Positions 1,627 through 64,000 of a stretch of 64,000 bases of DNA are shown here, piece after piece. A model generated the notes under the pieces. It did no database searches. It was not told the origin of the DNA and saw nothing but the letters and a program-made list of their open reading frames with translations. Both the position numbers and the translations under genes were made by a program. The stretch is from Minisyncoccota bacterium (GTDB lineage: Bacteria > Patescibacteriota > Microgenomatia > UBA1400 > PJMF01), in NCBI GenBank assembly GCA_029881675.1, contig JAOUMD010000001.1, positions 2,930 to 66,929 on the forward strand. Reading direction: 5' to 3'. How positions within the stretch are numbered: position 1 is the stretch's first letter; each line of letters begins with the position of its first letter.

Positions 1627-1659
1627 TCTAAGACTTATATTTAGTATACTTGTTAAGTA

Positions 1660-5994: not shown

Positions 5995-6044
5995 AAAAAA
6001 ACCTCCTATGTACTTAAGAGGAGGTAACTATTATTTATTTTGTC

Positions 6045-37931: not shown

Positions 37932-38073
37932 ACTTGGTATTAGATTCTATCATACAAAAGTGTAATAGATACGTCTTTTAAATATTCCATTCTCAAGAAT
38001 AGATGATAAAATTTATAGAATTTGGTGTAAAATATACACAGCCAATAAATATCAGTTATTTAGAAAGACGGCA

Positions 38074-39956: not shown

Positions 39957-39958
39957 AT

Positions 39959-43210: not shown

Positions 43211-44984
43211 AATATTTAAAACACTATTCACTTTAATATTAATAGCTTCTGCTTTTTTTATTTTTAAAGGTGATACCTTAGCTGCCTGTGGTGATGCTGC
43301 TTTTTGTGATGCTGCTCCAGGAGAGTGTTCAACTACTTCTAACGGTGGCCAAACAATTGTTATTGGATCATTTCAAACTGTGACAAGAGAATGTAGTGAG
43401 CTACAAAATTGTGATTACTGTACTTCTCAAGATTTACAAGATAACCCCTACTGTCAACCGGTCTGTACAACAGTGACAGAATGTCAAGATTCAGAAGGAA
43501 ATGATTTGCCAAGTGATACCGTTGTTACTACCACTTGTACCGACACCATCTGGGAAACTTGCTGTACTCCTGGGACACCTGCCGGAACTTGTGGAGACAA
43601 CATCTGTGAAGGAACTGAAACTTGTAGCTCTTGTGAATCTGATTGTGGAGCCTGTCTAGTACAGTGGTGTGGAGATGGCTCATGTAATGCTGGAGAAACT
43701 TGTGACAGTTGCGCTGCTGACTGTGGATCATGTAATTTCTGTGGAAATAATTCATGTGATGGTGGTGAAGATTGTAATAATTGTGCTGCTGACTGTGGTG
43801 CCTGTGCAGGTGGAAGTTGTGGAGATGGTTCATGTAACAATGGAGAATGGTGTGGAGACTGTCCAGGTGACTGTGGAACCTGTACCTCTTGTGGTGATGG
43901 TTCATGTAATGGTGGTGAAACTTGTGGAACATGCTCTACCGACTGTGGAGCTTGTGTAAGCTGTGGTGACGGTTCATGTAATGGTAGTGAGAACTGTGGT
44001 ACTTGTGCTACAGACTGTGGTAGCTGTGCTGACCCATCGTTCTGTGGAGATACAACCTGTGATGCCTTTGAGACTTGTGATACCTGTGAATCTGACTGTG
44101 GTGCCTGTGCGGAAAATGCAGCATGGTTCCAAATTAGTGCTGGACATGTCGGTAGTGCAAATGCAGGAGATGCTTCAGTAGCTATTCAAAGTGATATTAC
44201 CGATACAGCAGATTGTGTTGCTCCTGCTTGTGTTAGATCTTTATCTAGAACTGACTTAAATAATACTGCTTTAACTGACGGCTTTGCTGTTGTAGGTAGC
44301 GGAACAATTGATGCTAATGGTGGAATCAGTGAGCGTGATCAGAACACATATTCATCAAATACAACTAAGTCTAGATACCAAGAAAACTACGAATTCTTTT
44401 ATAGAAATTCTGGTTTAGCTGCAAATCCAACTGGTGACTTTACTGGATCAGAAACTGATGCTCAAAAACCAACATATAATGCTAATGATATTGTTTACTT
44501 CCAAAGTGGAGATCTCACTATTCAATCACCATGGAGTGTTGCTTCAGGTGAAACTTATGTAGTCTTTGTTGATGGTAATTTAACACTCACTGACGGAGAT
44601 GGTGCAAGTGACCAATTAATTGATGTAGCAGATGGTGGTTTCTTAGCCTTTATCGTCAGCGGAAATATAATAGTTAATGAACAACTTGGTAACTCAACCC
44701 TAGCCAGTACAACTTCAAATGTAGAAGGTGTCTATATTGCTGATGGTACGCTAACTATTGAGTCTAGAGGTACTGCAGGTGGAGGAGATGATCGCTTTGT
44801 CGGAGAAGGTGTATTTGTCGGCTGGACTGGAGTTAACTTAAATCGTGACTTTAGTGATGGTAGTACTAGATCTTTAGAAAATAATGATAAAGCTGTAGAA
44901 CTATTTGTCTACCGCCCAGATCTACTGGTTAATATGCCAGACATCATGCTTGTCCCAATTAGGATCTGGCAAGAAACTAACTAG
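43197..44984 (+). CDS. Secreted cysteine-rich-repeat protein with a C-terminal beta-helix/adhesin-like region
   Basis: Signal/TM 'LFTLILIASAFFIF', then about eight tandem copies of a roughly 22-aa unit 'CGDGSCN.GE.C..C..DCG.C' (for example CGDGSCNAGETCDSCAADCGSC; CGDGSCNGGETCGTCSTDCGAC). The C-terminus has repetitive beta-strand-like 'GDLTIQS...GNLTLTDGDG...VSGNIIVN' segments. Confidence 0.75.
   Translation: MKLTKIFKTLFTLILIASAFFIFKGDTLAACGDAAFCDAAPGECSTTSNGGQTIVIGSFQTVTRECSELQNCDYCTSQDLQDNPYCQPVCTTVTECQDSEGNDLPSDTVVTTTCTDTIWETCCTPGTPAGTCGDNICEGTETCSSCESDCGACLVQWCGDGSCNAGETCDSCAADCGSCNFCGNNSCDGGEDCNNCAADCGACAGGSCGDGSCNNGEWCGDCPGDCGTCTSCGDGSCNGGETCGTCSTDCGACVSCGDGSCNGSENCGTCATDCGSCADPSFCGDTTCDAFETCDTCESDCGACAENAAWFQISAGHVGSANAGDASVAIQSDITDTADCVAPACVRSLSRTDLNNTALTDGFAVVGSGTIDANGGISERDQNTYSSNTTKSRYQENYEFFYRNSGLAANPTGDFTGSETDAQKPTYNANDIVYFQSGDLTIQSPWSVASGETYVVFVDGNLTLTDGDGASDQLIDVADGGFLAFIVSGNIIVNEQLGNSTLASTTSNVEGVYIADGTLTIESRGTAGGGDDRFVGEGVFVGWTGVNLNRDFSDGSTRSLENNDKAVELFVYRPDLLVNMPDIMLVPIRIWQETN
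43560..44110 (+). repeat. Coding tandem repeat, period about 66 bp (22 codons), about eight copies, inside the Cys-rich protein gene
   Basis: Repeating 'tgtgg(a/t)ga(t/c)gg(c/t)tcatgtaa...gactgtgg...tgt' units. The His-rich overlapping ORFs on both strands in this interval are alternate-frame artefacts of the repeat. Confidence 0.8.
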
Positions 44985-49741: not shown

Positions 49742-50779
49742 TTACTCAAAGACTTCTTGTGCTGGAAAGAACATTGTTTCTTGAATTGATTTTGTATTGG
49801 CAAATAACATTACCAACCTATCAACTCCAACAGCAATACCACCTGATGGAGGAAGTCCTTCTTTTAGTGCATCGAGATAGTCCTCATCCATACCGTAATC
49901 AGTCTTGCCTAATTCTTTTCTGAGTTGTAAATCTTCTCTAAATTTTTCTTCCTGAACCTTTGGATCATTTTCTTCACTAAATGCATTACCTAATTCATAT
50001 CCACCTAAGTAAAACTCAAACCTCTGGGCAAATCTTGGATCAGATTGTTTCTTTTTTGAATATGCAGCCTGACTAGCAGGGTAGTCATATAAAATAACAG
50101 GAACATCATAATTTACTAACTGTGATTCAATTAAATTAAGAAACAGCTGGTTATATACTTCTTCCCAGGTAGTCTTATCATCTACTTGATATCCTTCTTG
50201 CTTAGCTCTCTCAATCATCTTATTTCTATCTAACAACCCATCAATATCAACCCCTACCCACTTCTCAAAAGCCTCAGCCACACTGATCTTTACCCAATCT
50301 TTACTTAAATCATACTTCTTACCTTGGTACTCTAAAATATCACTTCCATTTACTCTCTTAGAAAGGGACAGCATTAGATCCTGGCAATCCTGCATAATCT
50401 CTTCATAACTTGCATTACTTCGATACCATTCTAGAATTGTAAATTCAGGATTATGTCTTGAGCTAATTCCCTCACCATTTCTAAAACTTTTACAAACTTG
50501 AAATATATTTTCAAAACCAGCTACAAGTAACTTCTTCATAGCAAACTCAGGGCTAGTTAACATGAAGGCTTGCTGTCTTTTACCATTAGCCCATTTAAGT
50601 TCTGTTTCAAATACTTCAAGGAATGGTTCAGTACCTGGGTACTTAACCATCATTGGAGTTTCTACTTCATGAAAATCATTTGACTTAAAAAAGTCACGGA
50701 TACCATCAATTACTTTTTCACGGATGAGAAATTGTTCTTTTAAATCAGGGTTTTGCTTAATCTTTTTCCAGTTTTTCAT
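49742..50779 (-). CDS. epmA: EF-P--(R)-beta-lysine ligase EpmA (PoxA/GenX)-like, a truncated class II lysyl-tRNA-synthetase paralog without an anticodon-binding domain
   Basis: 'HEVETPMMV', 'MLTSPEFAMKKLLVAGFENIFQVCKSFRNGEGISSRHNPEFTILEWYR', 'RFEFYLGGYELGNAFSE' and 'GIAVGVDRLVMLF' are class II LysRS/EpmA motifs 1-3. Only 345 aa. Confidence 0.65.
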   Translation of the reverse strand: MKNWKKIKQNPDLKEQFLIREKVIDGIRDFFKSNDFHEVETPMMVKYPGTEPFLEVFETELKWANGKRQQAFMLTSPEFAMKKLLVAGFENIFQVCKSFRNGEGISSRHNPEFTILEWYRSNASYEEIMQDCQDLMLSLSKRVNGSDILEYQGKKYDLSKDWVKISVAEAFEKWVGVDIDGLLDRNKMIERAKQEGYQVDDKTTWEEVYNQLFLNLIESQLVNYDVPVILYDYPASQAAYSKKKQSDPRFAQRFEFYLGGYELGNAFSEENDPKVQEEKFREDLQLRKELGKTDYGMDEDYLDALKEGLPPSGGIAVGVDRLVMLFANTKSIQETMFFPAQEVFE

Positions 50780-50851: not shown

Positions 50852-52066
50852 ATGAAAGATAAACCAAAAATTCTTGAGATTACATTGGGTAAATCTAAAA
50901 TTAAGGATAATAATATTCTTCACTTAAAAAATAATTATATTCTCAAACAATATAATCTTAGACTGAATGAAAACATTCAAACCCAAGCAGATCAACTTAT
51001 TGAAAATCTTAATTATAAGCCTGATGGGATTATTGCCTTTAATGAAAATACCACTTTGTTTGCCAGCTTCATTATAAAAAAATTAAATCTATTTGGTCCA
51101 AAACATTCCTCCCTGATTGAAATTCAAAATAAGGAAAGTTTCGCAAATAAATTAAAGGACAAAGTATATTTACCTCAAACAAATATTGTCAGCAAAGAAA
51201 ATATAGATGAACTAAAAAAACTAAATTATCCAATTTTTATTAAACCAACCAAAGGTGCATTCTCACATGGAGCGTTAAAAATTAATAAAAAAAGTAACTC
51301 TAAAAAAATTATTCTAGATGCAATAGATGCTATTAAAATTAACAATTTTGATAAATCATCAAATTCACTTTCTTTAAAAAAATTCATTGTACAACCATTT
51401 ATTAACCAAAGACAATTTACACTAGATGGCTTTATTTTCAAAAGTAAAATATTCATTTTGGGCATTACAGAATCTATCTATGATGAGAAGCGACAAAGCT
51501 TCATTAGATTTGACTTTCCAATTATTTTCAAAAGTGAAATTAACTTAAAATTAAAAAATATCATGGAGGATATTTTTCAACAATTCTCATTTGATAATAG
51601 TTTTTTTAATTTAGAATTTTTTCTAACTAACACGGATGAAATAAAAGTCATTGAGGTTAATACAAGGCCTTCGATTAGTTTTAAAAACTTTTTTGACTCA
51701 AAGTATAAACAAGGAATTATAGAAATGATGATTTTGCTCTCACTTGGACTAAAACCTTCTTTAGAACTAAAAGACAATAAGGTTATTGGTAAAAGTTTTA
51801 TCTTAAGAAAATATCAGGACTGTCTAATTAAAAGGAAACCAAAAAATAACGAAATCAATAATATAAATAGTTTAAATCCATTTACTAAAGTAAGAATTTT
51901 TGTCAAAGAAAATGAAAGATTATCTCAACTAAAACAAGATTCATATTCATTCAGATATGGACTAATCGATATATGTGGAGAAACTGACAATGAAATATTT
52001 TCAAGATTTAAAAAAATAAAAAATGAACTAGATAAACTAATTAATTTTTCCCCAGTTTCTGATTAA
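50852..52066 (+). CDS. ATP-grasp-fold protein (hypothetical ligase)
   Basis: 'YPIFIKPTKGAFSHGALKINKK' ATP-grasp-like loop and a C-terminal 'IEVNTRPS'. 404 aa. Overlaps pgi by 26 nt (convergent). Confidence 0.4.
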   Translation: MKDKPKILEITLGKSKIKDNNILHLKNNYILKQYNLRLNENIQTQADQLIENLNYKPDGIIAFNENTTLFASFIIKKLNLFGPKHSSLIEIQNKESFANKLKDKVYLPQTNIVSKENIDELKKLNYPIFIKPTKGAFSHGALKINKKSNSKKIILDAIDAIKINNFDKSSNSLSLKKFIVQPFINQRQFTLDGFIFKSKIFILGITESIYDEKRQSFIRFDFPIIFKSEINLKLKNIMEDIFQQFSFDNSFFNLEFFLTNTDEIKVIEVNTRPSISFKNFFDSKYKQGIIEMMILLSLGLKPSLELKDNKVIGKSFILRKYQDCLIKRKPKNNEINNINSLNPFTKVRIFVKENERLSQLKQDSYSFRYGLIDICGETDNEIFSRFKKIKNELDKLINFSPVSD

Positions 52067-53306
52067 TCAAAATCTTACCACTCTCTACACCAGGTTGATC
52101 AAATGCATTAACTTCTAACATTTCAGCAAGATAAACTACAGCTAGTTCAAAAAGCATAAATAATTCACCTAAAGCGTATGGAGTTAACTCTTCAACACTA
52201 AGCATTGCCGTAGGACGACCTTCATCATAAATAGACTGAGCAGTTGCATCAGCTTCAATATTTACAATAGTATTAAAGTCATTACCTTCTAAATACTCTG
52301 CTTCAGGGACATCAATTCCCTTGAGAGTAAAGTTAGTCTTTCGATTCTTTATCTTCACAAACAGTATTGACTGGAGAGGAGAGCCTTGGTTATAAAACTG
52401 AACTTGTGAATGTTGGTCTGCAGGACCCCAAGCTTTTATAGGAAGAATACCTTTACCATCTTTTCCTAAAGACTCTGCCCAAAGTTGTCTAAACCAGCGA
52501 GCAAACTCTTGCAGTTGTACAGAATAGGTCATCATTACAGAGACTTTGACTCCTTGTTGATATAGCTCATATTGGCTACGAGCTAACTTTTGTGCAACCT
52601 TTCTAGTTTCTACATTAGTGGCAAAGTTTAATGCCCCAGTGACTAAGTCTTTAATATCTACACCAGCTGCAAGGGCAGGCAATAGTCCAACAGGAGTTAA
52701 AACACTAAATCTTCCACCGACACCTTCAGGAACGGGGAGTGTAATAACATTATGTCTCCCTGCTTCATCCTTTAAAATACCTTTGACACTACTGGTTGTA
52801 AAGACAAAGTGCTTTGCCCAGTTACTAGCTACTTTCTTTGCTTGTGATTTATAAAAGACATAAGTGGAAAGTGGTTCTAGTGTTCCACCTGATTTTGAAA
52901 CAACATTAAAAACAGTTTTCTTGATATCTATTTGATCTAATATTCTTTGAAAGGCAACTGGGTCTGTTGAGTCTCCAGCAAAGAGTACCTTCATTTGATT
53001 ACTCTTCTTATAAAAAGCTTCAACAATAGTTCTACCACCTAGGTCAGAACCACCGATACCAATTACAACCATGTATTCAGCCCACTTTAAATTTTCATAG
53101 ACATTTTGGACTGACTTAATATATGAATCTTCCTTAAGTACTTCGATAAAGTCATACTGAGCAACAGCGATATTTTCTTCAATCTTGTCGATGCTTTTTC
53201 TGAGATGATTAGATTCAACCTTAACTATTTCATTAGCAATTAAATGACCTAAGTTCTTATTTTCATATAAATACTTAGTATCAAGAGAAAGTAAAGTGTT
53301 TTTCAT
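52041..53306 (-). CDS. pgi: Glucose-6-phosphate isomerase (short form)
   Basis: 'VVIGIGGSDLGGRTIVEAF' PGI signature 1, plus 'GGRFSVLTPVGLLP'. 421 aa. Confidence 0.8.
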   Translation of the reverse strand: MKNTLLSLDTKYLYENKNLGHLIANEIVKVESNHLRKSIDKIEENIAVAQYDFIEVLKEDSYIKSVQNVYENLKWAEYMVVIGIGGSDLGGRTIVEAFYKKSNQMKVLFAGDSTDPVAFQRILDQIDIKKTVFNVVSKSGGTLEPLSTYVFYKSQAKKVASNWAKHFVFTTSSVKGILKDEAGRHNVITLPVPEGVGGRFSVLTPVGLLPALAAGVDIKDLVTGALNFATNVETRKVAQKLARSQYELYQQGVKVSVMMTYSVQLQEFARWFRQLWAESLGKDGKGILPIKAWGPADQHSQVQFYNQGSPLQSILFVKIKNRKTNFTLKGIDVPEAEYLEGNDFNTIVNIEADATAQSIYDEGRPTAMLSVEELTPYALGELFMLFELAVVYLAEMLEVNAFDQPGVESGKILINQKLGKN

Positions 53307-53413: not shown

Positions 53414-55111
53414 GTGAAAAAACATCTCAATAAATGGATTCCTTTTCTTATCATTATCTTTGTAGCTACTGCATTACGTTTTTACCAATTAGGTAATGTT
53501 CCAATAGAACTTAACAGGGATGAAGCTTCACTTGGCTATACAGCCTATTCTTTATTACAAACAGGTAAAGAAGAACACGGTCAGTCCTGGCCAATTAATA
53601 TAGAGTCATTTGGCGACTGGAAACTTCCAGCCTATGTCTATACTCTTATCCCTTTTATCAAAATATTTGGTCTTAAAGCTTGGGTTGTAAAACTACCAAG
53701 TGCTTTAGCCGGTATAGGAATAGTTATCCTAAGTGCTGTAATTACTTGGTTACTAACAAGTAGTTGGAAAGATCAGAATAAAAGAATTACTTTAAGCACA
53801 CTTGTCGCTTTCATGATCACTATCTCTCCTTGGAATATTCATATGTCCCATATGGCTTATGAGGCAAACTTAGGAATGTTATTCTTAATGACTGGGGTAG
53901 CTCTTTTACTGACTGCTTTGCAAAACAAATCCAAGAGAGTCTTGTTAATTCCTAGTGCTTTTTTCTTTGGTCTTACCTTCTTTAGTTACCATTCCTACCA
54001 GGTCTTCATGCCACTCTTAGTCTTATCTTTTCTATCTATCTACTGGAAAAAAGCCAAAAATATTTTTGAAACAGAAAAGAAAATTAGTTATATCTCTATA
54101 GCAATTGGAGCCTTATTTACTATTGCATTAATTGCTACTTCTCTTAGTGCTAATCAAACAAAACTATCTGGCCTTTCTATCTTCGATAAGAGCTCTTACT
54201 CAGTAGTAATGGAAGAAAATAGGGGATACTTTGAGAATAGAAATAGTTTACTAGCAAAGCTTCACTCCAATAACTTCTACTTTATCTTCAATCAAGCTCA
54301 AAGAAACATAGCTGATATATTTTCTAGTAAGTTCCTTTTCTTTGAAGGTGGCTCACATGGTTCTCACGATATTCCTGGGACAGGTAAGATGCATCCTGTT
54401 GCTTTTATTTTCTTAATCATTGCAGGATATAAATTCCTAACTATTTGGCAAGAAAAGAAATTGGAGAAGTGGCACAAAGTTATTATGGCTTGGCTTCTTG
54501 TTTCTATAGTTGCACCTTTCATTACCTTTGAAGCTGCTCATACCATTAGATTCTCACCAGCTTTATTCTCTTTAGAATTCCTTAGTGCTTATGGTTTATT
54601 TATCTTATTAGAAAAAGCCTTGAAAGATAATAAATATAAAATAATAGCAGGACTAACTATATTTATTCTTCTTTATTCTTTTGTTTATTTCTTTGCTACC
54701 TATTTCTTTGTTGCTCCAAAAAGAGACATAGATAAACATAATTGGCAGATAGAAAGGTTAGTAGAACTGGTAAATGATAGGGGAGATAGATATGATCTTA
54801 TCTCAATGCCAGGTACTGAGTGGTCACCATACATTTACTTCTTACTTTTTAATCAGACTGATCCAAATAGCCTAAGTAAAGATTTAGAATTTTATGATCC
54901 AGACCATGAAGGCTTCAGGCACGTAAAAAGACTCGGTAACATTCACTTTAGTTTAATTGACTGGAATGATCAGTCAGGCAAGAGTGTACTATATGTCATA
55001 AAGAGTAAAGAAGTTCCTGGAGATAAACTGGAATCAGAGAAATATCGATTAGAATATTCTTTAACTAATCCATATGCAAAGCATGAATGGTTATTACTTG
55101 GTAGAAAATAA
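53414..55111 (+). CDS. GT-C family membrane glycosyltransferase (GT39/PMT_2, ArnT-like), paralog 1
   Basis: About 10 TM helices. N-terminal loop 'RDEASLGYTAYSLLQTGKEEHGQSWPINIESFGDWKLPAYVYTLIPFIKIFGL...KLPSALAGIG' carries the D-E motif. Large C-terminal soluble domain. Confidence 0.7.
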   Translation: MKKHLNKWIPFLIIIFVATALRFYQLGNVPIELNRDEASLGYTAYSLLQTGKEEHGQSWPINIESFGDWKLPAYVYTLIPFIKIFGLKAWVVKLPSALAGIGIVILSAVITWLLTSSWKDQNKRITLSTLVAFMITISPWNIHMSHMAYEANLGMLFLMTGVALLLTALQNKSKRVLLIPSAFFFGLTFFSYHSYQVFMPLLVLSFLSIYWKKAKNIFETEKKISYISIAIGALFTIALIATSLSANQTKLSGLSIFDKSSYSVVMEENRGYFENRNSLLAKLHSNNFYFIFNQAQRNIADIFSSKFLFFEGGSHGSHDIPGTGKMHPVAFIFLIIAGYKFLTIWQEKKLEKWHKVIMAWLLVSIVAPFITFEAAHTIRFSPALFSLEFLSAYGLFILLEKALKDNKYKIIAGLTIFILLYSFVYFFATYFFVAPKRDIDKHNWQIERLVELVNDRGDRYDLISMPGTEWSPYIYFLLFNQTDPNSLSKDLEFYDPDHEGFRHVKRLGNIHFSLIDWNDQSGKSVLYVIKSKEVPGDKLESEKYRLEYSLTNPYAKHEWLLLGRK

Positions 55112-55130
55112 TAAATAAGTTTAAATATAA

Positions 55131-56903
55131 ATGAAAAAACATATCGGAAAAATAATCTTTAGCTTAATTATTATTCTTGCTGTTTTTCTTAGAGTTTATA
55201 AAGTCGATACATTATTATCACCGTACTGGGAAGAAGTTGCTCTTGGATATGATGCATACTCCATTAGTGAAACCATGCGTGATCATCATGGTAACTTCAT
55301 GCCTCTTGTGGCCTTTGAATCATTTGGTGACTGGAAACCTTCCTTTTACTTCTACACCATTGTGCCATTTATAAAATTGATTGGTCTTAATGTATTAGCA
55401 GTTAGACTGCCAAGTATTCTAACAGGGTTAGGCATAGTTCTTGGTGTTTATGTTTTACTAAGACAAATCTTACCTAATAATTTATTGAGTAAAAAACCTT
55501 ATCTCCCATTACTAGGAATGTTTGTCACAGCTATATCTCCATGGGCAATTATGTTCTCACGGGCTGGTTGGGAAGTTAACTTAGCTACAGAACTTATTTT
55601 ATGGGGAATAATTTGTTTTATTAGTTTTATTAAGCAAACAAAAAACATAAGAATAAAAAATACCTCATTATTCTTTTCTGTTCTCTTCCTATCTCTGTCT
55701 ATGTACACATACCATGCTACTAGAGTGATTGCACCACTACTGGGAGTAATTTTAATTTGTCTTTGGTATGCACAAACAGATCATTCAAAAAGACTTGCTC
55801 AAAGTATAAGAAAGTTTGTAGTAAACAATGTTTATACTATTATTGCCGCTGTCTTATTAACAATACTTTTAACTGGACCATTGATAATCAGTCTCAATGA
55901 TAAATCTACCTCACAAAGATTTGCAGAAACTAGTATCTTCTCTGAACTTAGTATCATTGAAGAGAGCAATTCTGCTTTATTAACTCAGCCGAATATTATT
56001 GGTAAAGTTTTCTACCATCGTTATCTACTTTTTGGTAGAGAAATGTTAACCAATTATTTAGATCACTTTACATTAGATTTCCTCTTCCTGAGTGGTGACG
56101 CCAATCCTAGGCACTCTGTCCAATATTTTGGACAACTCTATCATATTGAATTGGTCTTTTTATTATTGGGTTTTTATTTTGTTTTTTCATCTCTTAGAAA
56201 AATTAAAAATGATCCATATGGTGATAAATTTAAAAACTATCTTTGGTTACTGATTGCCTGGCTTGCTATCACTATCATTCCCGCTAGTATGACAAAGACT
56301 ACACCACATGCTTTACGTATTCTGCCCGCATTACCCGTTTTTATTGTTTTTATCACATTAGGAATAGGTCAATTTATTGATGAAGTCATCAATTTATTAA
56401 ATAAAATAAATATAAAACACAAGTATTTACCAAAGCTTATTCTTAAACTTGTAATTGTATTTTATATTTTAGAACTCTCTGTATTCTGGAGATTCTATAC
56501 CCTAATTTATCCAGTCCAATATGCTAGTGAATGGCAAGCTGGTTATGCTCAGATGGTAGCTGGAATTAACGATAAGATTGGTTTAGAAACTCCAATTTAT
56601 ATAACTAGACAACAGGGAAGACCAGCCATGTATGTTTGGTTTTTTAGCAAAACAGACCCAAATCTAGTTCAAGAATGGGACAGTATAGCAAAACAAGACC
56701 AAGGTGAATATTTAGAGTTTCAAAACATCAAATTTGTTAACTCATTAAATGAAATTACAAATACTCCTGCCACTATAATTGGATCGCAAGCAGAAATTGA
56801 AATCATTTCTAACACAGAGGATGGAAAGAATAATCTAACTATTACTCATAGTATTAATAATATTGATAATAAAAATGTCTGGCAAATTGGAGAACTCCAA
56901 TGA
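55131..56903 (+). CDS. GT-C (GT39/PMT-like) glycosyltransferase, paralog 2
   Basis: 'WEEVALGYDAYSISETMRDHHGNFMPLVAFESFGDWKPSFYFYTIVPFIKLIGL...RLPSILTGLG' has the same architecture as paralog 1. Confidence 0.7.
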   Translation: MKKHIGKIIFSLIIILAVFLRVYKVDTLLSPYWEEVALGYDAYSISETMRDHHGNFMPLVAFESFGDWKPSFYFYTIVPFIKLIGLNVLAVRLPSILTGLGIVLGVYVLLRQILPNNLLSKKPYLPLLGMFVTAISPWAIMFSRAGWEVNLATELILWGIICFISFIKQTKNIRIKNTSLFFSVLFLSLSMYTYHATRVIAPLLGVILICLWYAQTDHSKRLAQSIRKFVVNNVYTIIAAVLLTILLTGPLIISLNDKSTSQRFAETSIFSELSIIEESNSALLTQPNIIGKVFYHRYLLFGREMLTNYLDHFTLDFLFLSGDANPRHSVQYFGQLYHIELVFLLLGFYFVFSSLRKIKNDPYGDKFKNYLWLLIAWLAITIIPASMTKTTPHALRILPALPVFIVFITLGIGQFIDEVINLLNKINIKHKYLPKLILKLVIVFYILELSVFWRFYTLIYPVQYASEWQAGYAQMVAGINDKIGLETPIYITRQQGRPAMYVWFFSKTDPNLVQEWDSIAKQDQGEYLEFQNIKFVNSLNEITNTPATIIGSQAEIEIISNTEDGKNNLTITHSINNIDNKNVWQIGELQ

Positions 56904-58699
56904 GAAAATTCCTACCATTAATTTTCATTATCTTAATTGGGCTACTTGTTAGAACTTTCAGAATAGAACACGCCCCCAGCAGATTAACTCATGATGAAAT
57001 GAGCATTGGCTATAATGCTTATTCTATTGCCCAAACTGGGTTAGATGAATGGGGTAGGAAACTCCCCTTAAGTTTTGAAGCTTTTGGCGATTATAAGCTA
57101 CCTGGATATATTTATAGCGTTGTACCTTTTATATCTTTAATTGGCTTAAATACAATATCTCTAAAGCTTCCCTCGATCATTGCTGGAATATTTATCATAA
57201 TATTTTCTTACTTTATTACATTAAAGATAACAAATAACCAACAAACTAGTTTGTTTACGGCTGCTTTAATTGCACTTAGTCCTTGGCCAATTCACATCTC
57301 TAGAATGGCTTTAGAATCAAACCTGGCATTAGCTTTTTATAGTGGGGGATTATTTTTTTCATTAAGTATTTTTGATAAAGACTTAAAAAATGAAACTAAG
57401 ACAAAAAAAGAAATAATCAATAAAAAGAGTCTTACAATTAAATTACTGCTATCGGGATTATTATTTGCTCTCTCTTCATATACTTATGTTGCCTTTAGAT
57501 TAATTACTGTCTTAACGCTATTCTCTTTATCTATAATAAATATTAAGAAGAAAAAGCAACTAAAAAAATCATTTTTAATTTGGCTGTCATTCCTAGTTAT
57601 ATTAATTCCTCTTGTACCACAGCTTTTAGGAAGATCTGGTTCTGCCCGTTTTTCTCAAGTCTCTATTTTTTCTGATCAGGGTATTGAAGCCAAGGTAACA
57701 GAGCAAAGAAACTTTTGTTTCTTACAGCAACAATCAGGATTACCAAAATTATGCAAAGTTTTATATAACAAATACTTTTATATTGGAGAAAAGATAAGTA
57801 AAAACTATTTAAGTTTCATTCTACCGACATTCATATTTTTAGATGGAGATAAATTAGAATATTTAAATAACCCAGACTTTGGACAGTTTTCAATTATCCT
57901 TATTCCTTTTTACTTGATTGGTTTATACCAATTAGTTCAAAATAATAAGGAAAAATATGGCGATAAAACTAAAATTATCTATCTTTTGCTTGCATTCTTA
58001 TTTACCCCATTATCTTCAGCTTTAGTCGGAGATCCTCAGATAGTCAGAGGTAGTGGCTTGCTCCTCTTCATAGCCATATTTAGTGCGATTGGATTAACTT
58101 ATATATCAAGCTTAATTAAAAATAAAAATCTACAAAAAATTTCTTTGGCAGTAATTTCTCTTATTTTCTTATTCAACTTCAGCCAATACTTTATTAGCTA
58201 TAACTACATTTATGCGGCACAGTATGAAAATTATATCTACCAATTAGATCAAAGAACAGTTTCTCATTTAAATGAAGTAGAAAATAATTTTGACAAAATT
58301 TATATCTCAAATCATTTTCCCGATGCTCATATTTTATTAGCTTTTTATAACAAAATTGACCCAGCGTATTATCAAGCAAACATTATTAGACCAATAGCTG
58401 ATGGATTTGGTTTTGCCCATCCTAGTAACTTAGGAAAGTATCATTTCGGTGATCAAAAGTTAATTGAACAACTTTGCTTAACTGATAATTCTCTTTATCT
58501 TTCATTCAATGATGAGTTACCTGCAGGGTGGAAAATTGAAGAGAATGAAGCTAATAATTATGTATATGAAATAAAAGGTTTTTCAGGAGTTCATACCCAA
58601 GTTAAGTTCTTCGATTTAAAAAGGATTAAAGAATACTTAATAGTAAATAATTTATTAGAAAATACTTGTAAAAACTATACCAAATTATTAATAATTTAA
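56900..58699 (+). CDS. GT-C (GT39/PMT-like) glycosyltransferase, paralog 3
   Basis: 'HDEMSIGYNAYSIAQTGLDEWGRKLPLSFEAFGDYKLPGYIYSVVPFISLIGL...KLPSIIAGIF'. 4-nt overlap with paralog 2. Confidence 0.7.
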   Translation: MRKFLPLIFIILIGLLVRTFRIEHAPSRLTHDEMSIGYNAYSIAQTGLDEWGRKLPLSFEAFGDYKLPGYIYSVVPFISLIGLNTISLKLPSIIAGIFIIIFSYFITLKITNNQQTSLFTAALIALSPWPIHISRMALESNLALAFYSGGLFFSLSIFDKDLKNETKTKKEIINKKSLTIKLLLSGLLFALSSYTYVAFRLITVLTLFSLSIINIKKKKQLKKSFLIWLSFLVILIPLVPQLLGRSGSARFSQVSIFSDQGIEAKVTEQRNFCFLQQQSGLPKLCKVLYNKYFYIGEKISKNYLSFILPTFIFLDGDKLEYLNNPDFGQFSIILIPFYLIGLYQLVQNNKEKYGDKTKIIYLLLAFLFTPLSSALVGDPQIVRGSGLLLFIAIFSAIGLTYISSLIKNKNLQKISLAVISLIFLFNFSQYFISYNYIYAAQYENYIYQLDQRTVSHLNEVENNFDKIYISNHFPDAHILLAFYNKIDPAYYQANIIRPIADGFGFAHPSNLGKYHFGDQKLIEQLCLTDNSLYLSFNDELPAGWKIEENEANNYVYEIKGFSGVHTQVKFFDLKRIKEYLIVNNLLENTCKNYTKLLII

Positions 58700-58704
58700 T
58701 CAAA

Positions 58705-60108
58705 TCAAATCAAATCAGCACACCACTGATTCCTAAACCCTGCATCCATTTCCCAATATCGAGTGAAATCAAAAACAATAATCACGTAGATATTAACCAA
58801 TATTAATAAAAACAGAAGTGACCACATTAATATTTTAAGCTGTTTATCTTTTATCTTAAATCCAATCAACTTAAGACCATATGGAACAAACCCTAGTCCC
58901 ATCACACCTCTCATAACCAATGAAGGGACTTCGTGATACCAATGCCCATGAACTCCAGCAACTCTAAATAAAGGAAGCGTAACAAGCCAAAAAATACCAA
59001 ACATTAAATAATTATATTTCTTGAAAATTCTTTTTATATTATCTACAATTGCGACAACAAAAAGAGGATAAAGCATATAGTCATACCAACCGTGATAAGT
59101 ATTTTCTCCACTAGTGGCAAGGATAAAAAGCAGATTAAAAATTACAAAAATATTTAAGGCCAAAAATGTTTTCTTATTCTTATATAGAGAAATAACACTA
59201 GCAACCAGACCTAGTAGAATCCATCCATCAAAAAATATCTTTTCAATTACACCAGGATGTAAAAAGAACCTATTATGTAGTGTTGCCCAACCAATTGGTC
59301 GATTTGATTGTCCTAAAAATACATCAAGAAATAATCCCCAATTAAAATATGCTCCCCATAAAGAAAATAAAATTAAGCCACCAATTAAACCCCATAAACC
59401 TGCCATACTAATTTTCTTATCTTTGATAGACATGCCATATACAAAAATTGAAATAGGGATAATAAGGCCTGAGACTTTTGTCAAAACAGCTAATACACCT
59501 ACCAATAACAAGGCGACATATTTGAACCTCCATTTATCAGGTCTAAGTAAAATTAATGCCAATAAGGTCCAAGTAACTAATAAATTTTCTGCCACAACTA
59601 AACGACTTGCAAAAACAAAAGAAGGAACGGTAGCATAGATTAAACTTGTTAAATAAACCCATTTCTTTTTCTTAAAATATTTACTTGAAAGAATAAATAT
59701 CAAAACTACATTTAAAGTTCCAATTAATATCATCGGAAAACGAATCAATTTTATAGATGGAGTACTTTGCCAGTTGTTTTTTAAGGTATGAGCAAATCCT
59801 GGAATTAAAGCAAAGAGGGGAGGATGATCCAAAGCAGGTCTTACAAATGGAGCTTCATCACCACGTTGTTGAAATATATAGTTATCTAAGTATGGTCTAA
59901 AATACGACCAGCTAGTAGGCTGTCCTTCTTGGATAAGACTAGAACCAAGATACGTCCAGGCACTCTCATCAGCTGTCTCTCCACCAATTGGAAAACTAGT
60001 ATAGTTATAAAACCTCAAAAAAAGTGCGAGGACAATAATCGCACTAAAAATAAATAGGTTCTTATTTAAAAACTTCACATTCTTAGTATAACGCACATTT
60101 CGTAACAA
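58705..60108 (-). CDS. GT-C (GT39/PMT_2, ArnT-like) glycosyltransferase, inverted member of the array. Start uncertain: the ORF-track start is a TTG, and GTG candidates lie at 60096 and 60078.
   Basis: 'GGETADESAWTYLGSSLIQEG' and 'ALDHPPLFALI' (PMT_2 H-P-P-L motif), multi-TM. The N-terminus 'KFLNKNLFIFSAIIVLALFLRFYNY' resembles the other paralogs' starts. Confidence 0.65.
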   Translation of the reverse strand: MLRNVRYTKNVKFLNKNLFIFSAIIVLALFLRFYNYTSFPIGGETADESAWTYLGSSLIQEGQPTSWSYFRPYLDNYIFQQRGDEAPFVRPALDHPPLFALIPGFAHTLKNNWQSTPSIKLIRFPMILIGTLNVVLIFILSSKYFKKKKWVYLTSLIYATVPSFVFASRLVVAENLLVTWTLLALILLRPDKWRFKYVALLLVGVLAVLTKVSGLIIPISIFVYGMSIKDKKISMAGLWGLIGGLILFSLWGAYFNWGLFLDVFLGQSNRPIGWATLHNRFFLHPGVIEKIFFDGWILLGLVASVISLYKNKKTFLALNIFVIFNLLFILATSGENTYHGWYDYMLYPLFVVAIVDNIKRIFKKYNYLMFGIFWLVTLPLFRVAGVHGHWYHEVPSLVMRGVMGLGFVPYGLKLIGFKIKDKQLKILMWSLLFLLILVNIYVIIVFDFTRYWEMDAGFRNQWCADLI

Positions 60109-60135
60109 GTCAGATTGTTATATGATAAAGCAAGT

Positions 60136-61869
60136 ATGACCGAGAAACTTTTTATTAAATTTTTCCTTCTAATTGTAATAGTGGCTGCATTTATTAGGTT
60201 TACTGGCTTAGGTCAGATCCCTGTCTCCCTTTATTGGGATGAAGCAGCCATGCTTGTTGATGCTAAGACTGTAGCTGCTACTGGACAGGATATGCACGGT
60301 AACCCTTGGTATCAGCTCATGTACCCTTCATATGGAGACTACAAACTACCAATCTATATCTGGCTTGCTAGTTTCTCTGTCAAGTTATTTGGATTGAGTG
60401 AATGGTCTCTCAGACTTCCGAGTGCAATTGCTGGAATTGGAACAGTCATCACTTCAGGATTAATTGCCAGATTCCTATTCAAAAATTCAAAAAGAACTGA
60501 TCCAAAATTAATTCAATTAATGACCATGGCTGTAGTTACCTTTTCACCCTGGAGTATTATGTTTTCCAGGACTGCCTTCGAAGGACACTTAGCCCAATTC
60601 TTAGTTAGTTTAAGTATTCTTATATTAATGTGGATTCACTCCACAGTAACTCCATCACTCTTATTTGGGAAGGAGACTCCACAAACTATAATAAAACTAT
60701 CAATAGCTGCTTTATTTGGAGTAGTAGCAACTTATACATATTTTTCTGTAAGATTTGTTTGGCCAGTAGTATTCATAGCAATTCAACTATTCTATGCATT
60801 AAAATTTTTTACAAGCAAAACTAAAACTTTTGCCGTAGTTAAAAATATTATCCTCAGCTCTGCAATTCCCTTAATACTCTTCTTCTTGCTTTTAATTCCC
60901 ATGGTAAAGTCACCGCTTTATCAAGAAAGTAATACATTTAGATACTCAACCTCTTCTGTACTTAATAGCTTTGACTATCCTGTTATCTCCAATGGACTGA
61001 GAGAGTTAGCAGGAAATAATACTATTGATCGTTTTTTCTTTCATAGACATTTACTCTTAATTAAAGAGCTTGCCATTAACTACTCTGACCATCTCAGCTT
61101 AAATTACTTATTTATTAATGGCGACTCTAACTTAAGACATGGCACTACTACTCATGGTCTTTTCTTAGTTATCCTTCTGCCAATCTTTATTTATGGATTA
61201 TTTAAATTATTTTTAAATAATAAGAGAGTTTTAACCGTCTTAATTATTTGGTGGATAATTGCTTTGTTACCTGCCTCTGCACCAGAGACTACCCCGCATG
61301 CACTTAGATCACTAAATGGACTTATTCCATTAAGCATTATTATTGGTTTTGGTTTAACCCAATTTATTAACTTTAGTTTAATCAGATCAAAAAAAATAAA
61401 ATTCAAAGTAATATTATTTAGTTTTACACTTTTAACTATCTTTAATATCGGACACTTCCTTAACCACTACTTTTACCACTATCCTAGCCAATCTGCTCAT
61501 GACTGGCAGGATGGTTACAAAGAATTAGCTCTAACAATTGATCAAGTCAAAGATGATGTTACCACTGTCTGGGTGGAGCCATTTGAAGGTAGATTTTACT
61601 TGTGGCTATTAGCCTTTGGTGATTACTCAGCGACTCAAATTCAAGAAATGGATAAGCCAAACTACCAAATCAGTGAAATAGAAAACATAAAAATAGCTCC
61701 TTATGATTGGACTAGATTAAAAACAAATAGCTACAAGATTATTATTGTTGGCGAGACAACTAATATAAATAACAAGCTATCAGAAATAGAAACAAAGCCA
61801 AACTGGATTAAAGAAATTTACAGTCATGATGGAATATCTAGATTTAGCGTAGTGGAATTTGGAGAATGA
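60136..61869 (+). CDS. GT-C (GT39/PMT-like) glycosyltransferase, paralog 5. Start moved to the ATG at 60136, since the ORF-track start at 60115 is a TTG only 6 nt from the divergent gene.
   Basis: 'WDEAAMLVDAKTVAATGQDMHGNPWYQLMYPSYGDYKLPIYIWLASFSVKLFGL...RLPSAIAGIG'. Confidence 0.65.
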   Translation: MTEKLFIKFFLLIVIVAAFIRFTGLGQIPVSLYWDEAAMLVDAKTVAATGQDMHGNPWYQLMYPSYGDYKLPIYIWLASFSVKLFGLSEWSLRLPSAIAGIGTVITSGLIARFLFKNSKRTDPKLIQLMTMAVVTFSPWSIMFSRTAFEGHLAQFLVSLSILILMWIHSTVTPSLLFGKETPQTIIKLSIAALFGVVATYTYFSVRFVWPVVFIAIQLFYALKFFTSKTKTFAVVKNIILSSAIPLILFFLLLIPMVKSPLYQESNTFRYSTSSVLNSFDYPVISNGLRELAGNNTIDRFFFHRHLLLIKELAINYSDHLSLNYLFINGDSNLRHGTTTHGLFLVILLPIFIYGLFKLFLNNKRVLTVLIIWWIIALLPASAPETTPHALRSLNGLIPLSIIIGFGLTQFINFSLIRSKKIKFKVILFSFTLLTIFNIGHFLNHYFYHYPSQSAHDWQDGYKELALTIDQVKDDVTTVWVEPFEGRFYLWLLAFGDYSATQIQEMDKPNYQISEIENIKIAPYDWTRLKTNSYKIIIVGETTNINNKLSEIETKPNWIKEIYSHDGISRFSVVEFGE

Positions 61870-63389
61870 AAAAAAATCATAAATTAATACTAGCATTCAT
61901 TATCTTTATTGGTTTTTTGATTCGCATTTTTAATCTTTCTTCATTACCACTAATCCTAAATAGGGATGAGGCCGCTCTTGCTTATAATGGCCTGTTAATT
62001 AGTCAAAGCGCCAAAGATGAATTTGCAAAAAGTTGGCCTTTAACACTAGAGTCATTTGGTGACTATAAACTTCCGGGATATCCCTATACTTTAGCGATAC
62101 TATTTAAAATTTTGCCTATCAATGATTTTACGGTCAGACTACCATCTGTCTTAGCTGGAACATTATTAATCTTTATCAGTTATTTCTTAGCTCGAAACTT
62201 TAAATTTTCAATAAAGCAATCTTTATTCTTCTCCTTTTTGATTGCCCTTGGCCCAATTTTTATCTTTTACTCTCGGATAGCTTTTGAAGCTAATGTTGCT
62301 CTAACTCTATTTGTAATATCAATAACATTATTAACTTTACCTAAAAGTAATTTAAAAACTGATCTATGGGCTGGAGTGATTACTTTTATTGCCATTCTCT
62401 TTTACAACACACCATTATTGTTGTTACCTTTTATTATCCTTGCCTTAATAATATCCAGAGGAATTAAAAAACCTCAGAATTGGTTGCCTGTAGCAAGTTT
62501 ACTAACTTTTATTTTTATTATTATGTTTATGGGTCTGGCTGGGATCTCTTCACAAAAAAGTGGCATTACAATTTTTAGTGATGAAACTATTTGGACAGAG
62601 TCAGTTACTCATTACAATAGCTACACAGGAATATCACAAAAGATTCTGGGAAATAAAATTGTCTTTTATATTACAAAGATATGGCCTAGATTCTTTGAAA
62701 GTTTTTCCATGCATTTTTTAGTTACTGGGGGAGGAACTCATCCCTGGCACAACTTACCAACTCATGCCCATCTTTATTACACTACTTATTTCCTTGGGCT
62801 AGTTGGATTACTCTTACTAATTTTCAAGTCAATGAGAGATAAGAAACATCTCTTTATCTTGTTAATCTTAATTAGTTCTCTTGCTCCAAGTGTTATCACA
62901 GTAGATTCTCCACATGCGACTAGAAGTTTATTATTCATCTACCTGCTCACTTTTACAGGTCTGTATTCTTTGACAATAATCAGAAAAAAATATTTCAAAA
63001 AAATACTTTCACTATTAGTGTTATTGGTAATTCTAGAATCAAGTCGGTACATGTATCTATATTTTGGAAAGTATCCAGCCACACAACCTTCCTCACTAAA
63101 AATTGGTTATCCAGAATTAATAAATGAAGTTAACAAAAACCATTCTGATAAAAATATTGCTGTTATTGATGAAGCTGGCTTTCAATATATTTTAACTGCC
63201 TGGTACTTAAAAATACCATCAGATGAATTCTTCTCAACAATAATCAAACAATTACCAGATAGAATTGGATTTAAATATGGTCAGCAATTATCTAACTACC
63301 ACTTTATCGCACATCCTGATGATAGGGACGAAGCTGAGACTGTTCTGGTAGAATGGATAGATAACAGATGGCAAGTACGCCAATTCTAA
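61866..63389 (+). CDS. GT-C (GT39/PMT-like) glycosyltransferase, paralog 6
   Basis: 'RDEAALAYNGLLISQSAKDEFAKSWPLTLESFGDYKLPGYPYTLAILFKIL...RLPSVLAGTL'. 4-nt overlap with paralog 5. Confidence 0.7.
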   Translation: MKKNHKLILAFIIFIGFLIRIFNLSSLPLILNRDEAALAYNGLLISQSAKDEFAKSWPLTLESFGDYKLPGYPYTLAILFKILPINDFTVRLPSVLAGTLLIFISYFLARNFKFSIKQSLFFSFLIALGPIFIFYSRIAFEANVALTLFVISITLLTLPKSNLKTDLWAGVITFIAILFYNTPLLLLPFIILALIISRGIKKPQNWLPVASLLTFIFIIMFMGLAGISSQKSGITIFSDETIWTESVTHYNSYTGISQKILGNKIVFYITKIWPRFFESFSMHFLVTGGGTHPWHNLPTHAHLYYTTYFLGLVGLLLLIFKSMRDKKHLFILLILISSLAPSVITVDSPHATRSLLFIYLLTFTGLYSLTIIRKKYFKKILSLLVLLVILESSRYMYLYFGKYPATQPSSLKIGYPELINEVNKNHSDKNIAVIDEAGFQYILTAWYLKIPSDEFFSTIIKQLPDRIGFKYGQQLSNYHFIAHPDDRDEAETVLVEWIDNRWQVRQF

Positions 63390-63391
63390 TT

Positions 63392-64000
63392 ATGTCAAAA
63401 CCACTTATCAGTGTTGCACTAGCTACTCACAATGAAGAAAAAAACCTTTCTATGTGCTTGGATAGCGTCAAAGATTGGGTAGATGAAATCATTATTGCAG
63501 ATGGAGAATCTACAGATCAGACCATTTCAATTGCAAAAAAATATGATGCAAAAGTAATTAAGACAACCAATAAAGCAAACTTTCATATTAACAAACAAAT
63601 TGCCATGGACGAAGCAAAGGGTCTCATTGTTTTACAACTTGATGCAGATGAAGTAGTAGATAAAAAGATGGCCAAGTTTATCAAAGAAAAAGCAAAAGAA
63701 ATCAGTACCATTGAAAAAAAGGATTCTAGAGATATAAAAAACTACCAGCCAAAGGCTTGGAACTTAAGAAGGAGGAATTTCTTTCTTGGTAGATTTCTAA
63801 CAAAGGGTGGGCAATACCCTGACCCTGTCATCAGATTATATATTAATGGATTTGCTAGGTTACCTCAAAAGGATGTTCATGAACAAATGGATGTAAATGG
63901 GAATATAGAATTTGCTAAAGGACACCTCCTTCACTATTCAAATCCAAGCTTTACTGATTATTTACGAAAATTTAATACTTACACATCATTCAAAGCTATG
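63392..64000 (+). CDS. GT2-family (GT-A fold) glycosyltransferase, 3'-truncated by the window edge
   Basis: 'ISVALATHNEEKNLSMCLDSVKDWVDEIIIADGESTDQT...LQLDADE' shows the GT2 D-x-D / D-G-S-T-D-like signatures. No stop before the window end. Starts 3 nt after paralog 6. Confidence 0.7.
   Translation, partial: MSKPLISVALATHNEEKNLSMCLDSVKDWVDEIIIADGESTDQTISIAKKYDAKVIKTTNKANFHINKQIAMDEAKGLIVLQLDADEVVDKKMAKFIKEKAKEISTIEKKDSRDIKNYQPKAWNLRRRNFFLGRFLTKGGQYPDPVIRLYINGFARLPQKDVHEQMDVNGNIEFAKGHLLHYSNPSFTDYLRKFNTYTSFKAM

Follow-up and report, generated by a model that had tools for sequence, protein, structure and literature searches.

A tandem array of GT-C glycosyltransferases in a probable cell-envelope glycosylation cluster of Candidatus Pacebacteria

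The DNA analysed here is a stretch of 64,000 nucleotides (the window) of contig JAOUMD010000001.1 (assembly GCA_029881675.1, Minisyncoccota bacterium), and its subject is an array of six consecutive genes, P1 to P6, which spans 9,976 bp (53414-63389) close to the window end and is followed by a glycosyltransferase family 2 (GT2) gene. It is almost certain that all six encode GT-C glycosyltransferases. The region would form the first 10 kb of a cell-envelope glycosylation cluster of about 15 kb in a genome of Candidatus Pacebacteria (Microgenomates, Candidate Phyla Radiation (CPR)/Patescibacteria). To our knowledge, every characterised GT-C enzyme takes its sugar from polyprenyl phosphate on the outer face of the membrane, and by analogy each enzyme of the array is expected to bind a polyprenyl-phosphate sugar flipped to the outer leaflet and to pass the sugar to an extracytoplasmic acceptor. 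Together with the cytoplasmic transferases GT2 and GT4 and with a PMT and a YfhO-like enzyme encoded downstream, P1-P6 may act as a multi-step extracytoplasmic line by which a surface glycoconjugate is built or decorated. Taken as a whole, such a line of glycan assembly or decoration, dependent on polyprenyl-phosphate sugars, is considered the probable function of the cluster. A glycan or lipoglycan anchored in the wall or membrane would be a likelier product than glycosylated proteins only; between the two classes of acceptor, glycan/lipoglycan or protein, the balance is roughly even.

The genes of the array and the sites within them are listed below in window positions; family A denotes P1, P2, P3, P5 and P6, and aa stands for amino acids.

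P1, 53414-55111, plus strand, 565 aa: predicted family-A GT-C glycosyltransferase (open reading frame (ORF) list; 788 bits with the five-paralog hidden Markov model (HMM)); DE (residues 36-37) at 53519-53524, GDWKLP at 53612-53629, KLPSALAG at 53690-53713, C-terminal soluble domain from about 54689.
P2, 55131-56903, plus strand, 590 aa: predicted family-A GT-C glycosyltransferase (ORF, alignment, HMM, motifs); acidic motif EE at 55230-55235, GDWKPS at 55326-55343.
P3, 56900-58699, plus strand, 599 aa: predicted family-A GT-C glycosyltransferase, the structural reference of the analysis; D32-E33 at 56993-56998, GDYKLP (with K66) at 57086-57103, SRMALESN at 57299-57322, R383 at 58046-58048, C-terminal alpha/beta domain at 58232-58696.
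P4, 58705-60108, minus strand, 467 aa (463 aa from an alternative start at 60096): inverted, distantly related predicted GT-C; D47-E48 at 59965-59970, DHPPL (residues 94-98) at 59815-59829, RFPMILIG at 59719-59742, all on the minus strand.
P5, 60115-61869, plus strand, 584 aa (577 aa from an alternative start at 60136): predicted family-A GT-C glycosyltransferase; D42-E43 at 60238-60243, GDYKLP at 60334-60351.
P6, 61866-63389, plus strand, 507 aa: predicted family-A GT-C glycosyltransferase with the shortest C-terminal domain of the five; DE at 61965-61970, GDYKLP at 62058-62075.
GT2 (GT-A fold), 63368-64000 in the window and cut by its end, plus strand: Pfam Glycos_transf_2 match at 5.5e-18; the full length is 279 aa, with an end equivalent to window position 64207 in the parent contig.

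This layout agrees with a preliminary description of the stretch, in which five paralogs on one strand, an inverted sixth and a GT2 gene were placed within about 10 kb. Every ORF is intact. Overlaps of 4 nt join the end of P2 to the start of P3 and the end of P5 to the start of P6, and GT2 begins 22 nt before the end of P6. P4, for which the public contig described below has a 463-aa call, is wedged in between its neighbours: the convergent stops of P3 and P4 are 5 nt apart (58699-58705), and at most 39 nt separate the divergent starts of P4 and P5 (60096-60136). Since there is almost no intergenic DNA around P4, the promoters of P4 and P5 must sit inside adjoining coding sequence. A scan for consensus promoters and terminators gave 52 sites against 51 expected and no signal above expectation.

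The five plus-strand proteins align end to end at 21-29% pairwise identity; the membrane core (24-32%) is better conserved than the C-terminal domain (11-27%). An HMM built from them scores 615-788 bits per member and matched no other ORF of the window. P4 is too remote for this model; deeper family profiles link it with family A in both directions (1.6e-11 and 3e-13). The paralogy of the array is not a chance likeness. An acidic pair follows the first transmembrane (TM) helix in all six proteins, DE in P1, P3, P4, P5 and P6 and EE in P2. Common to the five are also GD(Y/W)K(L/P)(P/S), (R/K)LPSxxxG and S(R/H)xxxE, as well as (P/A)(H/Q)xxR, which reads PHxxR in three of them, AHTIR in P1 and PQIVR in P3. 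The extended N-terminal motif of the preliminary description, running from DE...Y through GDYKLPGY to RLPS, is indeed present in the five, but its DE...Y spacing is one residue off and P1 and P2 depart slightly from GDYKLPGY. Its inverted member with an H-P-P-L motif is P4, which carries DE at residues 47-48 and, in the place taken by GDYKLP in the five, D-H-P-P-L (residues 94-98), and which is devoid of the loop lysine. We take HPPL to be the PMT-type loop-1 motif, and for this reason P4 is read as the more PMT-like member of the array. P4 belongs to an ortholog family of its own, of about 110 CPR proteins, with D47 and E48 invariant in the 43 aligned members. The divergent C-terminal soluble domains described earlier are confirmed for the five by the identity values given above, but not for P4, the model of which is entirely membrane-embedded and lacks a C-terminal soluble domain.

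Family databases reach these proteins to a limited degree. In Pfam, only P3 (PMT, 30 bits against 22.7) and P6 (PMT_2 alone, 40.6 bits against 26.1) exceed a threshold, and P4 scores 20 bits with PMT, under the 22.7 threshold. For P3, P4 and P6 NCBIfam gave Agl23 and AZOBR_p60025 matches only, far below cutoff, and P1, P2 and P5 had no match in either library. The four-TM C-terminal module PMT_4TMC (PF16192) and the MIR domain of eukaryotic PMTs are absent from all six, and none of the six was matched by the NCBIfam Pmt model (at E<=0.01), by the NCBIfam ArnT model (PRK13279) or by Pfam YfhO. Two findings had been named beforehand as contrary to a GT-C assignment, namely a match to a non-glycosyltransferase membrane family and a YfhO-like protein without a D-E motif; neither was seen in Pfam or NCBIfam, and DE or EE is present in all six. 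The names carried by these proteins in public databases are automatic ("glycosyltransferase family 39 protein", "phospholipid carrier-dependent glycosyltransferase"), and the second of them is borne at NCBI by a protein 100% identical to P3 from a "Candidatus Pacebacteria bacterium" metagenome-assembled genome (MAG).

The assignment is carried mainly by the fold. AlphaFold2 models of P3 and P4, built from alignments of 50 and 43 homologs, reached a pLDDT of 94.2 and a pTM of 0.93 for P3, and 93.8 and 0.92 for P4. When compared with the Protein Data Bank (PDB) by Foldseek, both models matched GT-C enzymes alone at significant E-values, the matches of P4 including AglB, Pmt4 and ArnT. The fold comparison values were 24.1 for STT3B, 23.7 for Pmt4, 23.4 for AglB, 23.1 for ArnT (418 residues aligned), 22.5 for ALG12, 20.7 for Pmt2 and 19.4 for PglB, and ALG9, AftA, AftD, Emb and PimE were also found next to ALG12 among the structural matches. 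Judged by these models, the assignment to GT-C class A is secure. The "GT39" label is not established, since by fold the family is equidistant from the GT66, GT39, GT83 and ALG families. From the preliminary wording, "GT39/PMT-ArnT-like GT-C", the GT-C fold, the likeness to PMT and ArnT and the acidic loop motif of all six can be retained; the GT39 label cannot, as only P3 passes Pfam PMT.

In the P3 model 11 TM helices are counted by helix order, beginning with TM1 at residues 2-19. The first loop (about 30-85) comprises a helix, a beta-hairpin and an interfacial helix and is followed by TM2-TM7, a long helical loop at about 245-330, TM8-TM11 and an alpha/beta domain at about 445-599. Simple hydropathy counts of TM helices were inconsistent between the paralogs, and the helix order of the model was used instead. 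By that order all invariant residues and the C-terminal domain lie on one side, opposite the N-terminus. The N-terminus is cytoplasmic in all solved GT-C structures known to us; because it is taken as cytoplasmic here as well, the DE motif, K66, S134/R135/E139, the long loop, R383 and the C-terminal domain are placed in the model as presumably extracytoplasmic. The five proteins would accordingly be described as members of one large CPR-wide GT-C(A) family with about 11 TM helices, a putative catalytic DE/EE pair and a presumed carrier-phosphate lysine in the first extracytoplasmic loop (EL1), and, at the C-terminus, an extracytoplasmic alpha/beta domain of about 150 aa that is specific to the family. 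Next to them stands the shorter P4 with DE and HPPL.

An alignment of 50 family sequences shows no variation at E33, K66, S134, E139 and R383 and little at D32 (>=90% conserved); the five window paralogs keep these residues, with R135H in P1 and D32E in P2. HMMER aligned K66 with the lysine at chain position 88 of ArnT (5ezm), within a KPP stretch, and this lysine would be K85 if a tag offset of three residues is assumed. In ArnT the carrier lipid's phosphate is contacted by K85 of EL1, and in STT3, AglB and PglB by a conserved arginine (PMC7801869). R383 may be the counterpart of the conserved STT3/PglB arginine.

It could be supposed that the array is an artefact or in decay: its copies would then have been amplified in tandem recently, duplicated during assembly or turned into pseudo-enzymes without catalytic function. 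Three of the five family-A paralogs lack a Pfam or NCBIfam match, and the copy number differs, five against six, between close relatives. Nevertheless, this supposition is highly improbable. The paralogs are 24-32% identical and hence not recent duplicates, and all ORFs are intact. The same contig has been recovered in a public data set (ena:ERZ27296367:k141_535227, 211 kb; L001 below), which matches the window across the shared stretch with one single nucleotide polymorphism, at 61951 (a T/A difference, L001 position 15052), changing residue 29 of P6 from L to Q. A relative at about 80% identity (L002) holds the same cluster in the same order plus one extra family-A copy, and each window paralog has a 1:1 ortholog there at 76-88% (P1 88%, P2 80%, P5 81%, P6 82%), according to a neighbour-joining tree and an identity table. 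P1, P2 and P3 orthologs are found at 42-52% in the more distant L003 or L004 (P2 at 49% in L003). The extra copy of L002 (8223-10001, 592 aa) is very divergent, keeps DE and RLPS and lacks the GDYKLP lysine motif; it lies between the P2 and P3 orthologs, exactly where P2 and P3 overlap by 4 nt in the window, so copy number shifts cleanly between relatives. The ratio dN/dS, calculated by the Nei-Gojobori method for L001 against L002 and to be taken as approximate given that dS is saturated (>1), is 0.06-0.10 for P1-P6 (0.06 for P1, P5 and P6, 0.09 for P4, 0.10 for P2), 0.05-0.09 for the linked GT2, GT4, PMT and YfhO genes, and 0.07 for PGI. The predicted catalytic and phosphate-binding residues are kept in every copy. 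Recent amplification, assembly artefact and pseudogenes were rejected on the grounds of orthology, residue retention and dN/dS. Because of the 1:1 orthologs, the low mutual identity and the low dN/dS, the paralogs are old, singly maintained and non-redundant, and presumably functionally distinct; copies that are ancient, each with an ortholog lineage of its own and under purifying selection, would most likely have different acceptors or form different linkages.

The window ends within the cluster, the remaining genes of which occupy L001 16469-21636 (window 63368 to about 68535). Assigned by Pfam, they are:

GT2, L001 16469-17308, 279 aa.
GT4, downstream of GT2 and overlapping it, 350 aa.
Canonical bacterial PMT homologue, downstream of GT4, 504 aa, with Pfam PMT, PMT_2 and PMT_4TMC.
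YfhO-like GT-C, downstream of the PMT, 583 aa, with Pfam PTPS_related/YfhO.

The ORFs from GT2 onwards overlap or nearly abut, and an F420_ligase-like gene follows the YfhO-like gene. The downstream PMT reaches 90 bits with the NCBIfam Pmt model, against a cutoff of 800. The whole unit comprises eight GT-C genes, one GT2 (GT-A fold) and one GT4 (GT-B fold) in about 15 kb. Upstream of the array lie PGI, an ATP-grasp gene, a tRNA-synt_2-like gene and gatCAB, and the remainder of the window encodes housekeeping metabolism, as judged by Pfam scans of its ORFs.

The array is not confined to one genome. A pattern scan of the species representatives of the Genome Taxonomy Database (GTDB) gave at least 586 confirmed relatives, and those record titles which name a lineage are all of Microgenomates/Patescibacteria (Woese-, Davies-, Shapiro-, Collier-, Levy-, Gottesman-, Ames-, Roizman- and Beckwithbacteria). 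Many arrays were also seen in "binchicken" third party annotation (TPA) MAG records (L007, L012, L016, L017 and others) titled "uncultured Gammaproteobacteria" or "uncultured Pseudomonadales". These titles are probably placeholders or erroneous taxonomy, because the other array-carrying records are of Microgenomates and these contigs are at most about 0.76 Mb long. In 45 species-representative Microgenomates loci with the full 21 kb available, the number of family-A genes (complete ORFs of >=420 aa) per 21-kb locus varied from 1 to 7, the median being 5. An HMM search of 1.84 billion representative proteins returned 8,540 clusters (50% identity) at E<=1e-30 and 21,490 at E<=1e-10, and the best matches span the entire profile, the C-terminal domain included.

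Linkage was counted in 80 related array loci as the presence of a homologue with more than 100 bits. The 279-aa GT2 is present in 64/80, the 350-aa GT4 in 54/80, the YfhO-like gene in 26/80, a P4-type gene in 10/80 and Wzx in 3/80, and Bac_transf, DUF4012, ManC, PGI and LCP each in 0/80. The array of the window is a typical example of a conserved Microgenomates module, consisting of three to seven family-A GT-C genes with GT2 and GT4, and with or without YfhO-like and P4-type genes. In the open full-text literature, searched for CPR together with GT-C, GT39, PMT or ArnT, no paper describing such arrays was found. The sugar-transferase/DUF4012 pair at 1000-3738, proposed earlier as a functional partner, is without linkage support in this role: Pfam confirms Bac_transf and DUF4012, but the pair lies 50 kb away and is linked to none of the 80 loci. 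Pieces of a possible GDP-mannose route are scattered over the window as well, namely a ManC-type nucleotidyltransferase (5-988), a 116-aa cupin (25519-25869) with a weak mannose-6-phosphate isomerase C-terminal match, and PGI (52041-53306) directly upstream of the array. None of the three is linked to arrays in other genomes.

The conservation of GT2 is striking. The gene shows 58-65% identity across more than 100 Patescibacteria clusters, with 4,417 matches at E<=1e-10 and dozens of invariant residues, a DADE motif among them, which is conservation far above that of any GT-C gene. In PDB searches its profile is nearest to GmaR, the Listeria flagellin O-GlcNAc transferase (3e-18 over 170 residues), and to SunS, an S-glycosyltransferase (4e-10); Pyrococcus furiosus DPMS (1e-6) and GtrB (4.5e-4) are matched over the N-terminal ~90 residues alone. 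Its NCBIfam matches are all far under cutoffs. A second type of GT2, taken from L003, found no relative in the PDB search. A GtrB/DPM1-type synthase was considered, but both single-sequence and profile searches of the PDB favour GmaR and SunS. The matches thus do not identify GT2 as the maker of a polyprenyl-phosphate-sugar donor.

These data bear directly on a three-component scheme of side-chain decoration, in which GT2 would make one polyprenyl-phosphate monosaccharide and each GT-C would branch it onto a different polymer or position. Such a scheme would agree with the adjacency of GT2 and GT-C genes in 64 of the 80 loci, with the YfhO-like gene of the cluster, with the hydrophobic or amphipathic C-terminal helices of GT2 and its weak DPMS and GtrB matches, and with the paradigm reviewed for Gtr, CsbB/YfhO and the lactococcal CsdAB/CD/EF (PMC8035078). 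However, GT2 is much nearer to GmaR and SunS and lacks two clear C-terminal TM helices, no GtrA-type flippase is seen in the cluster or in the scanned ORFs of the window, GT4 is co-conserved though the scheme needs none, and there is one GT-A per 5-8 GT-Cs, compared with the 1:1 pairing of GT-A and GT-C in known systems (PMC8035078). On balance the scheme is regarded as doubtful.

A different proposal is that the paralogs are PMT-like protein O-glycosyltransferase isoenzymes, comparable to yeast Pmt1-7 or the Caldicellulosiruptor GT39, each modifying Ser/Thr of its own secreted or surface proteins (S-layer, pilins, adhesins) with sugar from a polyprenyl-phosphate donor. Pfam PMT and PMT_2 are the sole family matches, and many homologs of the paralogs carry PF02366 or PF13231; the linked GT2 is nearest to the protein glycosyltransferases GmaR and SunS; and the window encodes secreted T/P/E-rich and Cys-repeat proteins which are candidate acceptors. 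There are precedents too: in Caldicellulosiruptor bescii all extracellular protein glycosylation depends on a bacterial GT39 (PMC6151902), and GT-C enzymes O-glycosylate Ser/Thr-rich regions of streptococcal membrane proteins (PMC12041528). Notwithstanding this, the proposal is judged unlikely. The cluster contains a separate canonical PMT (PMT and PMT_4TMC), whereas the five paralogs are without PMT_4TMC; the EL1 motif of the five has the ArnT-type lysine (GDYKLP) and not the PMT-type HPP; their fold is no nearer to PMT than to STT3, ArnT or ALG12; and the constant linkage of GT2 and GT4 fits stepwise glycan building better than modification with a single sugar.

A polyprenyl-phosphate-sugar-dependent line producing a surface glycan or lipoglycan is favoured instead, with non-redundant GT-Cs which would most likely differ in acceptor or linkage specificity. 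It agrees with the co-conservation of GT2 and GT4 with multiple GT-Cs and with the canonical PMT already present in the cluster. In one relative, L004, the array adjoins genes for an LCP ligase, a Wzx-type flippase and a nucleotide-sugar epimerase/reductase. Multi-component systems of Gram-positive bacteria, composed of a GT-A, a flippase and a GT-C, decorate teichoic acids and wall polysaccharides (PMC8035078). A more specific version, tentatively put forward as one possibility, is an undescribed Microgenomates-wide assembly line in which GT4 and GT2 would prime or feed a lipid-linked intermediate at the cytoplasmic face and 4-7 dedicated, non-redundant GT-Cs with a novel C-terminal acceptor-binding domain would extend it stepwise outside the membrane.

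Several points weigh against a line of this kind. Pfam and NCBIfam scans gave no family for P1, P2 and P5. In the profile search of PDB sequences the 50-sequence family A reached ArnT alone, at E=1e-3 over 160 residues, which is a weak link, and searches with the six-sequence alignment and with the P4 family returned nothing. The topology is based on homology and on helix counting in the model, with no dedicated predictor, the C-terminal domain (~150 aa) matched no recognised fold or family, and the saturation of dS makes the argument from selection an approximate one. LCP, Wzx and phosphoglycosyl transferase (PGT) genes are absent or nearly so in the 80 GTDB loci, and the hint at a wall polymer comes from a single relative. 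A donor-forming enzyme was not identified, and the linked GT2 is far more similar to GmaR and SunS, which act on proteins or peptides, than to GtrB or DPMS. When approximately 55 of the longer window ORFs were scanned with Pfam (a few small ORFs were unscanned), neither a GtrA-type flippase nor a GtrB-like gene turned up, and the genes called directly downstream contained none either. The largest gap in the model lies at the donor step.

The genomes of CPR/Patescibacteria are of about 1 Mb and many biosynthetic pathways are missing from them; these bacteria are largely uncultivated and probably host-attached. The spending of about 15 kb on eight GT-Cs and two cytoplasmic glycosyltransferases, repeated in relatives, points to an important surface glycoconjugate. 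If the assembly line outlined above exists, it would be a bacterial counterpart of the ALG series of the endoplasmic reticulum (ER) lumen or of the mycobacterial lipomannan/lipoarabinomannan (LM/LAM) pathway, and its product, a major surface glycan or lipoglycan, could mediate the attachment of episymbionts to their hosts. The family is large and poorly captured by Pfam and NCBIfam, and with better models thousands of CPR genomes could be annotated more accurately. The enzyme class, the likely chemistry and the automatic names were already known; it can be said that the finding extends known biology and brings no new principle.

Some other features of the window deserve mention. A 595-aa secreted protein (43197-44984, plus strand) contains about nine tandem Cys-rich repeats (CGDGSCNGGExCGxCxxDCGxC) and, after them, a C-terminal region rich in beta structure; nothing in Pfam or NCBIfam matched this protein, which may act at the cell surface or in adhesion. 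A 553-aa acidic protein (40827-42488, plus strand), which has a signal-anchor at its N-terminus and a linker rich in T/P/E (PEVEPEAAPEPDDETVVTPEPIVTPES), matched no family and is a candidate O-glycosylation acceptor. About six small paralogs (186-189 aa), several of them with weak to moderate matches to PF05014 (nucleoside 2-deoxyribosyltransferase), lie at 35682-40528 with NUDIX and methyltransferase genes interspersed, and the region looks like an expanded nucleoside-salvage cluster. A SAM-I/IV riboswitch (RF01725, 57 bits; 6026-6142, minus strand) stands directly upstream of the S-adenosylmethionine synthetase gene (metK, 4876-5994); it is the sole Rfam match in the window, and no tRNAs were found there. 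A 345-aa class II tRNA-synthetase core (tRNA-synt_2; 49742-50779, minus strand) is devoid of a Pfam-detected anticodon-binding domain, and by size and sequence it may resemble EpmA/GenX-type EF-P lysyl transferases more than a true aminoacyl-tRNA synthetase.

Among known systems, ArnT (GT83; PDB 5EZM/5F15), the Und-P-L-Ara4N:lipid A transferase, is the only solved structure reached by the family-A sequence profile. The common features are the aligned EL1 lysine, a similar RLPS...G motif in TM2 and a C-terminal extracytoplasmic domain, and by analogy a polyprenyl-monophosphate monosaccharide would be expected as the donor of the paralogs. In contrast, identity is about 10%, 11 TM helices are counted against 13, and the C-terminal domain does not match that of ArnT. 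CPR bacteria are expected to be without lipid A, and hence the acceptor must differ from that of ArnT. With the PMTs (GT39: yeast Pmt1/2/4, actinobacterial Pmt, C. bescii Cbes_1864) the paralogs share DE at the start of loop 1 and the 11-TM architecture, and P4 in addition the HPPL loop-1 motif, presumably of PMT type; they differ from them by the lack of PMT_4TMC or MIR and by the lysine of the five paralogs at the place of the HPP of PMTs.

The multi-component systems of Gram-positive bacteria (CsbB/GtcA/YfhO, GtlA/GtlB, CsdAB/CD/EF; PMC8035078) resemble the cluster in having a GT-A gene beside PMT_2- or YfhO-type GT-C genes, and GT-Cs of low mutual similarity which are recognisable mainly by fold. 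In these systems sugars from undecaprenyl-phosphate (C55-P) sugar are added extracytoplasmically to wall or membrane polymers (PMC8035078), and the same may be expected of the Microgenomates enzymes by analogy. Unlike them, the arrays have 5-8 GT-Cs per GT2 and GT4, no GtrA-type flippase in the cluster, and a GT2 which is similar to GmaR/SunS and not to CsbB/GtrB. Finally, mycobacterial PimE, MptA-C, EmbA-C and AftA-D (LM/LAM and arabinogalactan) and ER ALG3/9/12/6/8/10 are series of non-redundant GT-Cs which work outside the cytoplasm, one after another, on a glycan anchored to a lipid or to the wall; cytoplasmic GT4 enzymes prime these series, and a GT2 that makes polyprenyl-phosphate sugar feeds them. 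Sequence-level membership of these lines is not seen, and the GT2 is not demonstrably of Ppm1/DPM1 type; the likeness is one of logic, in that the same three enzyme classes are co-conserved in the arrays.

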